A DNA stretch of 64,000 nucleotides, from positions 32,001-96,000 of the IMG/VR virus record IMGVR_UViG_3300006467_000134. The stretch is one strand, 5' to 3'. Of this stretch, positions 3,985 to 59,048 are shown one piece after another. The DNA is from a virus (taxonomy: Duplodnaviria; Caudoviricetes). Numbering within the stretch: position 1 is the stretch's first letter; each line of letters starts with the position of its first letter. Under the pieces are notes generated by a model that was given only the letters and a program-made list of their open reading frames with translations, searched no databases and was not told where the DNA came from. Both the position numbers and the translations under genes were made by a program.

Positions 3985-4898
3985 CGGTCAACTTCAGTAT
4001 TCAGAGAAACGATCTCTGCCTTAGTTGGGCGATTTCCAAAACCAAACTTTGGATCGCCCTGGGATGGTGTGAGGGTAACGGAGATCCTGATGACATCTCC
4101 ACGCTTCAAAACAGTTTGTACTTGTTCGCCATTAACCTCAGCTTCAAACAGCTGCAGGTCAGAAGGAATCGAGCAGTGCACCAGGTAGCCATCAGTGGTC
4201 TTAATGGTCATCTTGAAACTGTGTCCCCAGGCGGTGTCATTGACAGCCGTCTTCAGAACCGTTGCTTCAATCGTATGACGTCCAGTTGGGCAAGGAAGAG
4301 CTGCAGCCTTTTCAGCTTCTCGTTCTGCCTTAACCTTTTCCCGGTTGTCAATCTTCTCGAACAAGGTGTCCATGAAGTCCCATTGACCCTGGCTTAGGCT
4401 ACCGAACCGAACCAGCTTGGATACCATGTTGTGGATGGTAGCCTCTTCGTACAGCATGTTGACAGGGGATCCACTGTTGTAGATCTCCCAGGCAGCCAGC
4501 TTGTCACGCTCAGCCAGTAGGCCCTCAGCTTTGGCCTTGCCAGCCTTGGCCTTACGCCAGTCGCCAGCAGCTTTGGTTACCTTAGCAAACAGAGCAGGAT
4601 CACCCATGTCCAATTTGTCGGCACAATCGTTACCTACTTTGATGTAGGTGTTGGTGTCGGCATGGTAGAACACCAGCGAGTAGATCAGGCTGTTGCCACA
4701 GACGTGGCATTTTCCGCCTTCCTGGTGGTCAGCAAACTTTCCACCAGTTTTTTCCAGGTGCTCGCGGAAACGGGCTCGTTGCTCCTGCAGGAGGTAAACG
4801 TCACCCATGTCCTCGATTTTCTTGTGCAAAATAGCGATGAACTGGTAGTCTTCAGGTTGAATCACCGAGGGGCGGTGAATGTCAGTGCGAGTTGTCAT
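3981..4898 (-). CDS. Hypothetical early protein (CxxC motif; possible C-terminal OB-like domain)
   Basis: 305 aa; AGGAG RBS and own promoter; CHVCG...GNDC. Confidence 0.7.
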   Translation of the reverse strand: MTTRTDIHRPSVIQPEDYQFIAILHKKIEDMGDVYLLQEQRARFREHLEKTGGKFADHQEGGKCHVCGNSLIYSLVFYHADTNTYIKVGNDCADKLDMGDPALFAKVTKAAGDWRKAKAGKAKAEGLLAERDKLAAWEIYNSGSPVNMLYEEATIHNMVSKLVRFGSLSQGQWDFMDTLFEKIDNREKVKAEREAEKAAALPCPTGRHTIEATVLKTAVNDTAWGHSFKMTIKTTDGYLVHCSIPSDLQLFEAEVNGEQVQTVLKRGDVIRISVTLTPSQGDPKFGFGNRPTKAEIVSLNTEVDR

Positions 4899-56599: not shown

Positions 56600-56633
56600 A
56601 AAAACAAAAAGAGAGCCTCTATTACAGAGGCTC
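56600..56633 (-). terminator. Intrinsic terminator after the 155-aa decoration gene
   Basis: gagcctct-5 nt-agaggctc followed on minus strand by tctttttgttttt. Confidence 0.75.
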
Positions 56634-57107: not shown

Positions 57108-57130
57108 AGTAAAGGACCTTTCAAAGTTAA

Positions 57131-57207
57131 ATGGCTGCCATCATCAGGCACTGCCCACCACGGTCAGTGCGAAACAAGGCAGTCCGAAGACTGCCCTGCT
57201 TTTCGGC
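57131..57207 (-). ncRNA. Type II hammerhead ribozyme (HH2), predicted cleavage UUC| between 57171 and 57170
   Basis: GCC-GAAA-AGCAGGGCAGUC(UUCG)GACUGCCUUGUU-UC|GCACUG..CAGUGC-CUGAUGA-U-GGC; loop GUGGU can pair with downstream GCCAU. Confidence 0.85.
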
Positions 57208-57209
57208 TT

Positions 57210-57875
57210 TTATTCAGGGAAATTTAGGTAGGCAAATTCACCAAACAGCTCTTTTGCTTTTTCATCATAAGCCTTTGCAGCTTCCAGTGCTGTATTGAAC
57301 CTACCAAGATGGTGAATTTTTCCCTTATGCTGGAGTCTAGCAATATATTGATACTTGGTTTTGTTCTTCATTAGGCGTTTAGTTACTCCTTTATAACCAG
57401 ATTTACAGTTTTTCTGCGGACCTGAATTTAAAACGTTTTGAGTCAAAGAGCATAAACGCAAGTTCGACTTTCTATTGTTTAGTGGGTTTCTATCAATATG
57501 ATCCACTATTTCATCGGGAAGAAGGGATCTTCCTAAAGAAAGCTCCATTACCAATCTATGAAGTTTCGTCGGTCTGGGTCTATGTGAAAAACCGTACCCA
57601 TTTTGTAGGTGCCAGTTCTGCTTATAAAGTGTATCCCAATATTCGGGATCTACCAAAAGCTTATCTCCTGCTTTAGTGTATATAACAGATTTATCTTCTT
57701 GATCTGGAAAATTCAAAGGGAGATAAGGACTAATATCTTTGGCCTTTTTATCGTAGGCTCTGGCAGCTTCCTCAGGGGTTGGAAATGTGCCAAGATAATG
57801 GCGTTTCTTGTCTACTTGAATTTCAGCGGCAAATTTCCCATCTTTTTTGGGCCATACACCACGTAACTTTTTCAT
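57210..57875 (-). CDS. HNH homing endonuclease with two AP2 DNA-binding domains
   Basis: AP2 (YLGTF.TPEEAARAYD..LNFP), HNH (LHRLVM...DHIDRNPLNNRKSNLR), AP2 (SGYKGV...LGRF.TALEAAKAYD...GEFAYLNFP). Confidence 0.92.
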   Translation of the reverse strand: MKKLRGVWPKKDGKFAAEIQVDKKRHYLGTFPTPEEAARAYDKKAKDISPYLPLNFPDQEDKSVIYTKAGDKLLVDPEYWDTLYKQNWHLQNGYGFSHRPRPTKLHRLVMELSLGRSLLPDEIVDHIDRNPLNNRKSNLRLCSLTQNVLNSGPQKNCKSGYKGVTKRLMKNKTKYQYIARLQHKGKIHHLGRFNTALEAAKAYDEKAKELFGEFAYLNFPE

Positions 57876-57889
57876 TTTACTTCCTTTGT

Positions 57890-57962
57890 AACCTATGACT
57901 CATCAGGAGGCTTTCGGTCGATAGCCTCGACTAAGAAGACAGTAAGTCTTCTTAGTTTCGTC
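57890..57962 (-). ncRNA. Type II hammerhead ribozyme (HH1), predicted cleavage GUC| between 57929 and 57928
   Basis: GAC-GAAA-CUAAGAAGAC(UUACU)GUCUUCUUAG-UC|GAGGCU..AGCCUC-CUGAUGA-GUC; loop GACC can pair with downstream GGUU. Confidence 0.9.
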
Positions 57963-57989
57963 TTACTTGAAATTATCAAGTATTTAAAC

Positions 57990-59048
57990 CTAACTAGGGT
58001 CAGTCGGGTTGTGATTAACTGGAGCCGTACCAGCCGAGCAGATGCCAGTAGCTGGCGTTCCGCACAGACGCAGGTTCTTAACCAGGACAACCATGTCAGG
58101 GTTTTCAACCATGAAGTCAGCTTCCCACCACATGGTGTATTCGAAGCTGTCACAACGAGGCTTACGTTCACGCTCAATCGACAATTCGCGACCGGTAACG
58201 TAGATCAGGTTGCTCAATGGCGTGTAAACCATGTAAGTACCGTCAGTTTCCCCGCCACCATTGTCCAGGTTTTCTGGCCAGTTGTTAACGCGGAAGACAG
58301 ATTCACCAAGTGGGTTGACGCCTTGGCCGCCACTCAGGATGATCTGATCACCCAGGTTGGTAGCTCGGCTGGTCAACTGCTGTACCCATCGGTTGTACAG
58401 GCGAGGACCCAGTACCCATCGATACTGATCCAATTCGCTCAAATACTCAACAGGGATGCGGTTCTGGATTTCGAACAACAGTTCGGTAGAGATACCAGCA
58501 CCAGCAGCGTCGATAATTTGGGTGGAGGGAACGCAAGACTTCAACAGACGGATGAAACCGTCGTTAACGCCCAACAGGTTGTTCAGATCGGATTGACTGT
58601 CGCCAGTAGGAATAGCGGTGTCGCCCATAACAGCGGCACGTTCCATGTCAACAGCAATACGCTTCTGGAATTGACCCAGCAACGTTTGGGTTACTTGCTC
58701 CCGTTCGACGTTGTAACGCAGGAAGTCACTCTTTACCGAAAAGAAGCTTCCATACTTTTCCAAGTCGTAGGTCAGCATCGAGTCGGTAGGACGAGATTCC
58801 TGAGGGCAGCTCGTAGCATGAGCACCCTGAGAAACAACACCACCGAGGTCCAGACGGTGGATCTTACCTTTACGGTTGTCCACTCGCATGGTACGAATAT
58901 TTTGCAACAGGTTTGAGGTGTTGCGAACCATGTCGAAGAAACGGTCGGACTGAGTCCGATCCAACATGGCGTTAGGGTTGGTTGCTTCGCTGATCGGGAT
59001 TTGACAGCCCTTAATCAGATCAACCATTTCAAGTTTGCCACTCATCAA
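57990..59048 (-). CDS. Major capsid protein (HK97 fold)
   Basis: LDRTQSDRF....NTS.LL; DME..A..GD; NDGF; position after protease/scaffold. Confidence 0.9.
   Translation of the reverse strand: MMSGKLEMVDLIKGCQIPISEATNPNAMLDRTQSDRFFDMVRNTSNLLQNIRTMRVDNRKGKIHRLDLGGVVSQGAHATSCPQESRPTDSMLTYDLEKYGSFFSVKSDFLRYNVEREQVTQTLLGQFQKRIAVDMERAAVMGDTAIPTGDSQSDLNNLLGVNDGFIRLLKSCVPSTQIIDAAGAGISTELLFEIQNRIPVEYLSELDQYRWVLGPRLYNRWVQQLTSRATNLGDQIILSGGQGVNPLGESVFRVNNWPENLDNGGGETDGTYMVYTPLSNLIYVTGRELSIERERKPRCDSFEYTMWWEADFMVENPDMVVLVKNLRLCGTPATGICSAGTAPVNHNPTDPS

Follow-up and report, generated by a model that had tools for sequence, protein, structure and literature searches.

A very probable type II hammerhead ribozyme between the capsid and AP2-HNH genes of an uncultured phage

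Type II hammerhead ribozymes, together with their pseudoknot, their abundance near phage genes, and their occurrence in pairs or triplets flanking prophage genes, were described in 2011 (Perreault et al., PMC3088659). Cleavage in vitro and in E. coli has been demonstrated for type II hammerheads with this pseudoknot and for several hammerheads that flank single prophage genes (PMC3088659). The pseudoknot, a pairing of 4 to 7 bp that links loop I with the strand immediately 3' of stem II, is the standard tertiary contact of the type; mutation shows that it is needed for fast cleavage (PMC3088659). The role proposed for prophage units with multiple hammerheads is the processing of single-gene mRNAs (PMC3088659), and reviews of hammerhead function in phages and bacteria merely suggest polycistronic mRNA processing (PMC6765202). 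Within the library searched, a full-text literature search returned no paper tying hammerheads to homing endonucleases or to phage capsid genes. In synthetic insulators of the RiboJ type, a hammerhead is combined with a hairpin: cleavage strips the upstream RNA and leaves a 5' hairpin before the ribosome-binding site.

The hammerhead analyzed here, HH1, is a well-supported new example of this known element class, not a new class. It lies in the genome of an uncultured phage whose record comprises 105,608 bases with direct terminal repeats. The window, i.e., the whole stretch of 64,000 nucleotides that was analyzed, corresponds to bases 32001 to 96000 of that record (features are given in Table 1). 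All genes around HH1 are on the minus strand, in the order portal gene, 486-aa gene, capsid gene, HNH gene, and 155-aa gene. The catalytic core of HH1 is identical to that of bacterial and prophage type II hammerheads (PMC3088659, RF02276), with which HH1 also shares a sense-strand intergenic site in a phage operon; their pseudoknot between loop I and the tail 3' of stem II has a candidate counterpart in HH1. As in other IMG/VR examples, it begins after the upstream stop codon and ends ∼20 to 25 nt before the next start. It differs from the Rfam type II consensus in its loop and tail sequences and in an extra hairpin adjoining stem II. HH1 and a second hammerhead, HH2, recall the triple arrangement around ardA in an A. 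tumefaciens prophage, where same-strand hammerheads likewise bracket one gene in a polycistronic unit (PMC3088659). Unlike in the ardA case, the bracketed gene here encodes an AP2-HNH protein, the upstream neighbor is the probable major capsid gene, and an HNH-less relative shows an "empty" state with one hammerhead. RiboJ-type insulators differ in another respect: they are engineered type III hammerheads, whereas HH1 is a natural type II element.

Table 1. Features around HH1, with positions counted in the window
Feature	Position	Strand	Basis or remark
Portal gene	62275-60518	minus	two genes ahead of the capsid gene
486-aa gene		minus	between the portal and capsid genes
Probable major capsid gene, 352 aa	57990-59048	minus	PHROG; stop codon TAG at 57992-57990
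7-bp AU-rich hairpin in the capsid-HH1 gap	57964-57982	minus	sequence and MFE folds; adjoins stem II
HH1, predicted type II hammerhead ribozyme including 3' pseudoknot strand	57890-57962	minus (coding)	descriptor, fold, covariation
HH1 stem II	GAC 57962-57960 with GUC 57899-57897	minus	3 bp, from sequence
HH1 core G12-A14 (GAA)	57959-57957	minus	from sequence
HH1 stem III hairpin	57956-57946 with 57940-57930	minus	11 bp including A15.1-U16.1; loop UUACU
HH1 cleavage triplet GUC	C17 = 57929	minus	from sequence
HH1 predicted scissile bond	C17 (57929) / G1.1 (57928)	minus	hammerhead consensus, GUC triplet
HH1 stem I hairpin	57907-57928: GAGGCU 57928-57923 with AGCCUC 57912-57907	minus	6 bp, 10-nt loop
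HH1 core CUGAUGA, then stem II 3' strand GUC	57906-57900, then 57899-57897	minus	sequence
HH1 candidate pseudoknot	loop I GACC 57919-57916 with GGUU 57893-57890	minus	one G-U pair
AP2-HNH homing-endonuclease-like gene, 221 aa	57210-57875	minus	Pfam AP2, HNH_3; between HH1 and HH2
HH2, second predicted type II hammerhead	57129-57208	minus	strict scan, RF02276; just 3' of the HNH stop codon
155-aa gene	57107-56640	minus
First intrinsic-terminator-like hairpin and T-run downstream of the capsid gene	56613-56633	minus	after the 155-aa gene

The product of the 352-aa gene upstream of HH1 matched PHROG 1623, annotated "virion structural protein" (head and packaging), with an E value of 6e-58, and PHROG 70, "major head protein," with an E value of 1.6e-6. 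A weak match to Pfam Phage_cap_P2 was also found, and a profile of its relatives matched PDB 7jw1 (the P2 capsid protein gpN) with an E value of 0.005. From these matches, the gene product is probably the major capsid protein. The 221-aa AP2-HNH protein matched PHROG 99 (HNH endonuclease; E value, 3e-57); its sole close relative is encoded at the locus of a capsid relative, L146 (75% identity), the next best being 43% identical. No terminator-like site was found between the capsid gene and the 155-aa gene of the window. Beyond the terminator that follows the 155-aa gene, a 723-aa gene (start, 56588; minus strand) begins MSDWTRYPD, and the 159-aa L146 homolog of the 155-aa gene (L146 4966) begins MSDWTHLPD. 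Judging by these residues, the small gene and the N terminus of the 723-aa gene may be paralogous.

Read 5' to 3', HH1 consists of the stem II 5' strand, GAAA, the stem III hairpin, GUC, the stem I hairpin, CUGAUGA, and the stem II 3' strand. [quoted passage not shown] Consensus nucleotides occupy every core position (C3 to A9, G12 to A14, A15.1-U16.1, C17, and G10.1-C11.1), bearing out the canonical-core hammerhead that the initial annotation had read at this site. The stem lengths given there agree with ours for stem I (6 bp) and for stem II, which is short at only 3 bp; the 10 bp given for stem III become 11 if A15.1-U16.1 is counted. The cut had been placed after position 57929, and by consensus this is where C17 of the GUC triplet falls. 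HH1 had also been said to stand directly after the capsid stop codon. That wording needs correction, as 27 nt separate the two, yet the sole content of this gap is the AU-rich hairpin, whose UACUUGA/UCAAGUA-type arms were likewise annotated and are present. The statement that the capsid RNA would end in two hairpins after cleavage follows from the sequence and hammerhead chemistry. The annotated pairing between the GACC loop and the GGUU tail exists as well, with 4 bp, the GGUU lying 3 nt ahead of the Shine-Dalgarno sequence AAAGGAAG (57887 to 57880) of the HNH gene, which starts with ATG at 57875. In HH2, an additional U separates A9 from G10.1, stem III is 13 bp long and capped by UUCG, and the cut is predicted after C57171.

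A strict type II descriptor, which demanded the core with its A15.1-U16.1 pair, any base but G at position 17, and stems free of interruptions, gave exactly two matches on the two strands of the 105,608-base genome. These were HH1 and HH2, both on the sense strand and both intergenic. With tight stem limits, no match was obtained in 150 dinucleotide-shuffled genomes; with loose limits, the mean was 0.27. The bare heptamer CUGAUGA occurs at the frequency expected by chance, so the signal resides in the whole architecture. The minimum free energy (MFE) fold of the 82-nt HH1 element is exactly the hammerhead secondary structure (−27 kcal/mol; z = −3.9). Within a 126-nt context, the MFE fold has −37.7 kcal/mol, versus −33.9 kcal/mol for the hammerhead fold. 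In that longer fold, the capsid stop region (57986 to 57995) pairs with part of the core (57902 to 57906) and with stem II (57959 to 57962), all on the minus strand. We give this alternative little weight because nearest-neighbor folding models leave out the pseudoknot and the ribosomes covering the stop codon. Should the alternative fold be real, ribosomes terminating on the capsid open reading frame (ORF) would favor the active fold.

At gathering thresholds, Rfam gave no match anywhere in the window. The type II model RF02276 did not match HH1 even when E values up to 10 were allowed on short stretches. At relaxed thresholds, partial or misregistered matches of HH1 to Hammerhead_3 (16.9 to 21.2 bits) and a match to the RAGATH-1 hammerhead (15.5 bits) were seen, the search displaying only the best match among overlapping related hammerhead families. 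HH2 scored 35.1 bits with RF02276, against a gathering threshold of 37 bits that is a curated score cutoff rather than a defining structural feature; HH1 was unreported. Canonical-core type II hammerheads can escape both the curated Rfam model and its threshold. A plus-strand match to the IS1222 frameshift element (26.8 bits; cutoff, 45 bits) was rejected as an antisense reading of the same hairpins.

In a large protein collection, 41 relatives of the capsid protein were found, and ∼145 loci around capsid relatives were gathered from IMG/VR, JGI metagenomes, and assemblies. Throughout the close clade, whose capsids are 76 to 84% identical, a hammerhead lies 0 to 28 nt past the capsid stop codon in all five arrangement types (the window, L002, L003, L146, and L147); seven distinct hammerhead sequences underlie this comparison. 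The gene after this hammerhead varies, being an HNH gene of one lineage or another, the 155-aa gene, or a 201-aa gene. At L146 (capsid identity, 77%), a hairpin, an HH1 ortholog (85% identical), a close HNH gene (75%), a second hammerhead, and a 155-aa-gene homolog follow one another, and the HH1 ortholog has C in place of U7, at the variable position. At L147 (78%), an ortholog of the window's HH2 adjoins the capsid stop codon and is directly followed by a homolog of the 155-aa gene, with no HNH gene. L002 (84%) has an HH1-like ribozyme, a near-consensus sigma-70 promoter, and another AP2-HNH gene (43% identical), with no second ribozyme. L003 (76%) has its own hammerhead, the 201-aa gene, and a GT9 glycosyltransferase gene, with neither an HNH gene nor a 155-aa gene. 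The next ORF is ∼110 nt from the ribozyme in L002, where the promoter follows the ribozyme, and ∼100 nt from it in L003. A 7-bp hairpin of different sequence is found in L146 at the place of the window's AU-rich hairpin; L002, L003, and L147 have none. Searched with blastn against 50,697 GenBank phages, the locus gave no match, a pattern specific to HH1 matched only L002 in IMG/VR, and the HNH protein as a single query retrieved no related IMG/VR locus.

Several further features of these relatives were observed. Between the hammerhead and the AP2-HNH gene of L002 (3290 to 3320, plus strand), and also in L148 to L151, the promoter reads TTGACT, 17 nt, TATAAT; the L002 AP2-HNH gene has no hammerhead downstream and, by sequence, seems to be served by a promoter of its own. 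The L002 homolog of the 155-aa gene (∼4110 to 4125) has no ATG, GTG, or TTG at its conserved N terminus (AVWPGF), and its one plausible start is an ATT after a Shine-Dalgarno-like AAAGG. Past the second hammerhead of L146 (4917 to 4950) stands a run of 14 C residues, which may be an assembly or sequencing artifact or a slippery homopolymer.

In an alignment of eight clade hammerheads, including HH1 of the window, the core columns are invariant except for position 7 (U or C). Cells of the paired columns pair in 93.4% of cases, versus 35 to 46% when the 3' partners were slid by 1 to 3 columns, and in stem I the proportion is 100%. Changes on both sides were seen in 13 of 19 pairs (stem III, 7 of 10; stem I, 5 of 6; stem II, 1 of 3), and the covariation score was reached in none of 500 shuffles. 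This covariation among relatives supports all three helices of HH1. A covariance model, R1, was built from eight clade hammerheads, HH1 and HH2 among them; in the genome, it scored HH1 at 82.6 bits and HH2 at 78.5 bits, as expected by construction, and matched nothing else. When R1 was run on 136 loci from capsid relatives with ≤60% identity, it detected no hammerhead, a negative result that counts because the model recovers unrelated type II hammerheads in other IMG/VR phage contigs. A relaxed descriptor applied to all capsid-relative loci returned nothing but noise inside coding regions. We conclude with high confidence that HH1 is a real hammerhead.

A helix of 4 to 7 bp between loop I and the tail is possible in all five hammerhead lineages, the tail lying 1 to 3 nt past stem II. 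No two lineages share its sequences: HH1 has GACC/GGUU, L002 a helix of 7 bp, L003 UAAC/GUUG by eye or AAUU/AGUU as the best pairing found by script, and the other two GACU/AGUC and GUGGU/GCCAU. Taken alone, the HH1 pseudoknot is not significant, as one equally good arises in 21% of shuffles (P of about 0.2); pseudoknots as good in the five lineages jointly arise in 4 of 3,000. One pseudoknot pair shows a compensatory change, from C-G in the window to U-A in L002, with alignment columns and register unchanged. An exact-pattern scan of IMG/VR gave at least 118 stretches; for comparison, we used 99 type II hammerheads, located in 80 other IMG/VR loci and taken among the matches listed. The median distance from the ribozyme to the start of the next ORF is 25 nt in these 99 (among the matches listed). 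The ribozyme itself starts ≤12 nt from the upstream same-strand stop codon in 76 of 93 cases (median, 2 nt; again among the matches listed). By this sample, it is usual for a phage type II hammerhead to lie close to the following ribosome-binding site, and HH1 is not special in this respect. Arrays of three to five same-strand type II hammerheads spaced by 300 to 1,500 nt were observed in many IMG/VR contigs among the matches listed, including L161, L162, and L170, and each hammerhead begins no more than a few bases from the stop codon upstream of it.

Among distinct distant capsid relatives, 39 of 71 have a GC-rich hairpin of 10 to 14 bp with a T-run ≤150 nt past the capsid stop codon (median, 25 nt), versus 5 of 72 control stretches inside the capsid ORF. 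With a hammerhead in the clade and a terminator-like hairpin in the distant relatives, the ribozyme appears to occupy the slot of a terminator or stabilizer. HH1 has the same position as the terminators or 3'-stabilizer hairpins that follow phage major capsid genes, and either element would leave the capsid mRNA hairpin-capped at its 3' end. Unlike a terminator, HH1 would make this end by cleavage, with a cyclic phosphate, and transcription would run on into the downstream genes. A separate observation concerns three loci of distant relatives, L069 (∼3127 onward), L138 (∼489 onward), and L116 (∼1838 onward), in which the capsid match ends early, at residue 226 or 304, and is followed by an in-frame stop codon and a conserved noncoding stretch. 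There follows, in two of them (L069 and L138), an ORF that has a LAGLIDADG-like motif. By their sequences, these early ends look like insertions of the intron or intein type in the capsid gene; no group I intron was found at the Rfam gathering score in these loci.

The best overall explanation of these data, which we consider likely, is an active hammerhead with a role in mRNA processing. HH1 is very probably an active type II hammerhead self-cleaving ribozyme, and it most likely separates the capsid cistron from the AP2-HNH cistron by cutting the late polycistronic RNA between them. What the data show is the motif with its conservation, covariation, and position; cleavage and all of its downstream effects are inferred. 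HH1 would be transcribed within the minus-strand head-gene operon that runs from the portal gene to the 155-aa gene, and its RNA would fold as three helices around the canonical core, the GACC/GGUU pseudoknot keeping stems I and II parallel. It would then cut its own backbone after C57929. In the hammerhead family, cleavage after position 17 is established to yield a 2',3'-cyclic phosphate and a 5'-OH. The capsid mRNA would thereby gain a fixed 3' end, made up of stem III (a hairpin of 11 bp), a single unpaired C, and the cyclic phosphate. This end would be a poor substrate for 3' exonucleases and poly(A) polymerase and should resist exonucleolytic attack and polyadenylation. The downstream RNA would begin with the 5'-OH and the stem I hairpin and would retain the ribosome-binding site of the HNH gene. 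HH1 and HH2 together would split the operon RNA into separate messages for the capsid gene, the HNH gene, and the 155-aa gene, possibly uncoupling message stability and translation while transcription is not halted. In this clade, the ribozyme would replace the post-capsid terminator or stabilizer hairpin of the more distant relatives. The stabilizing and uncoupling effects of ribozyme-made ends are drawn from general knowledge of RNA decay, and toward the processing role as set out here we lean with modest confidence. Two broader ideas were set aside. Stem III length is a poor argument for 3'-end protection: the 11 bp of HH1, versus a median of 8 bp in 80 other phage type II hammerheads among the matches listed, are not unusual. 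Nor do phage type II hammerheads generally follow capsid genes, as none of 10 large upstream ORFs among the matches listed was recognizably a capsid gene.

Other readings of HH1 were weighed against this explanation. It is very unlikely that HH1 is an inactive relic, a structure-only element (RNase III sites or stabilizer hairpins), or a chance match. In favor of such a reading, Rfam gives no call for HH1, and an alternative fold is predicted in the longer context, but the single-stranded core is invariant across lineages while the three helices change by compensatory substitutions, and the tight match is absent from all 150 shuffled genomes. Selection on hairpins alone would not yield an invariant core together with compensatory helices, which argues against the structure-only version. 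The initial annotation had suggested that, through the GACC/GGUU pairing, HNH translation might depend on how the ribozyme folds. In that case, the loading of ribosomes and the activity of the ribozyme would be either mutually exclusive or mutually favorable. The GGUU does lie inside the expected footprint of a ribosome initiating at the HNH ATG, and L146 keeps the same spacing between GGUU and the Shine-Dalgarno sequence; L002 and L003, however, do not. The pseudoknot is the known tertiary contact of the family, can form in all five lineages whatever lies downstream, and therefore requires no special tie to HNH translation. Moreover, nearness to the next start codon is general (the median of 25 nt given above, among the matches listed), and the pseudoknot is no longer needed once the RNA is cleaved. 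The coupling proposal is unsupported, and we regard it as improbable.

A further reading concerns the origin of HH1 and its beneficiary and is compatible with the processing explanation, to which it adds these two elements: HH1 may be the 5' ribozyme of a mobile unit made up of the hairpin, HH1, and the AP2-HNH gene. The message of the inserted HNH gene would then be cut out of the head-operon transcript, the capsid mRNA would keep a ribozyme-made hairpin end, and the next gene would still begin at the resident HH2. The window and the HNH-less L147 differ by one clean indel of ∼780 bp, from the capsid stop codon to just before HH2, which contains exactly the hairpin, HH1, and the HNH gene. Such presence/absence polymorphism at one site in otherwise collinear relatives is what is looked for in a free-standing homing endonuclease cassette. 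The flanks are also better conserved than the capsid ORF (HH2, 92% at aligned positions; start of the 155-aa gene, 82%; capsid ORF, 75%), and in L146, a member of the other capsid subclade, the same HH1 (85%) stands before the only close relative of the HNH gene. Hammerheads flank this HNH gene on both sides in both genomes that have it, and the two HNH-less arrangements have a single hammerhead. On the other hand, all clade members have a post-capsid hammerhead, whether or not they have an HNH gene, and in L002 an HH1-like ribozyme precedes a different HNH gene (43%) that has its own near-consensus promoter and no downstream hammerhead. The divergence between the window and L146 also equals that of the capsid (HNH DNA, 69%; capsid, 75%). 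A cassette as diverged as the capsid shows no sign of recent transfer, and recent horizontal transfer of the HH1-HNH unit was rejected. Outside the clade, an AP2-HNH gene flanks none of the 99 other phage type II hammerheads among the matches listed, and a hammerhead is near none of the seven other AP2-HNH relatives examined; the AP2-HNH HMM was verified on positive controls. On these counts, a general association between hammerheads and AP2-HNH genes was also rejected. We take HH1 as part of a mobile unit to be a tentative possibility, and the fuller version, in which a selfish AP2-HNH gene travels with its own ribozyme, has inserted between the capsid gene and a resident hammerhead, and has its message excised at both ends, to be rather doubtful. 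A ribozyme-insulated homing-endonuclease cassette is, on the comparative evidence, possible but unproven. Highly improbable, finally, is circularization of the HNH RNA between HH1 and HH2 by a host RtcB-type ligase or by a re-formed hammerhead. The chemistry of the ends (5'-OH and 2',3'-cyclic phosphate) would fit, and in L146 the two ribozymes share the GAC/GUC stem II, such that the ends could rebuild one hammerhead; but the hybrid stem II of the window contains a mismatch (GCC with GUC), and Perreault et al. sought circular or spliced products of multi-hammerhead prophage transcripts and found none (PMC3088659).

If the cassette reading is correct, both neighbors of the HNH gene would keep ribozyme-defined mRNA ends, and the unit would correspond to a homing endonuclease carried by an intron, but at an intergenic site and with no ligation. 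Under that reading only, it resembles the homing endonucleases borne by group I introns, in which a selfish endonuclease gene is tied to a catalytic RNA that could limit harm to expression of the host gene. It differs from them in that splicing and ligation are not involved, the insertion is intergenic, and the association is confined to a small clade. Under either reading, processing alone or processing of an inserted cassette, the locus provides an unusually clean natural comparison: what comes after the same capsid gene is a ribozyme in one clade and a terminator-like hairpin in the relatives of that clade, and within the clade there is either one ribozyme without an HNH gene or two with the HNH gene between them. 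Two questions thereby become testable. One is whether, on an mRNA expressed at very high levels, a ribozyme-made 3' end can take over from a terminator hairpin, and the other is whether an operon into which a selfish gene inserts is buffered by its hammerheads.
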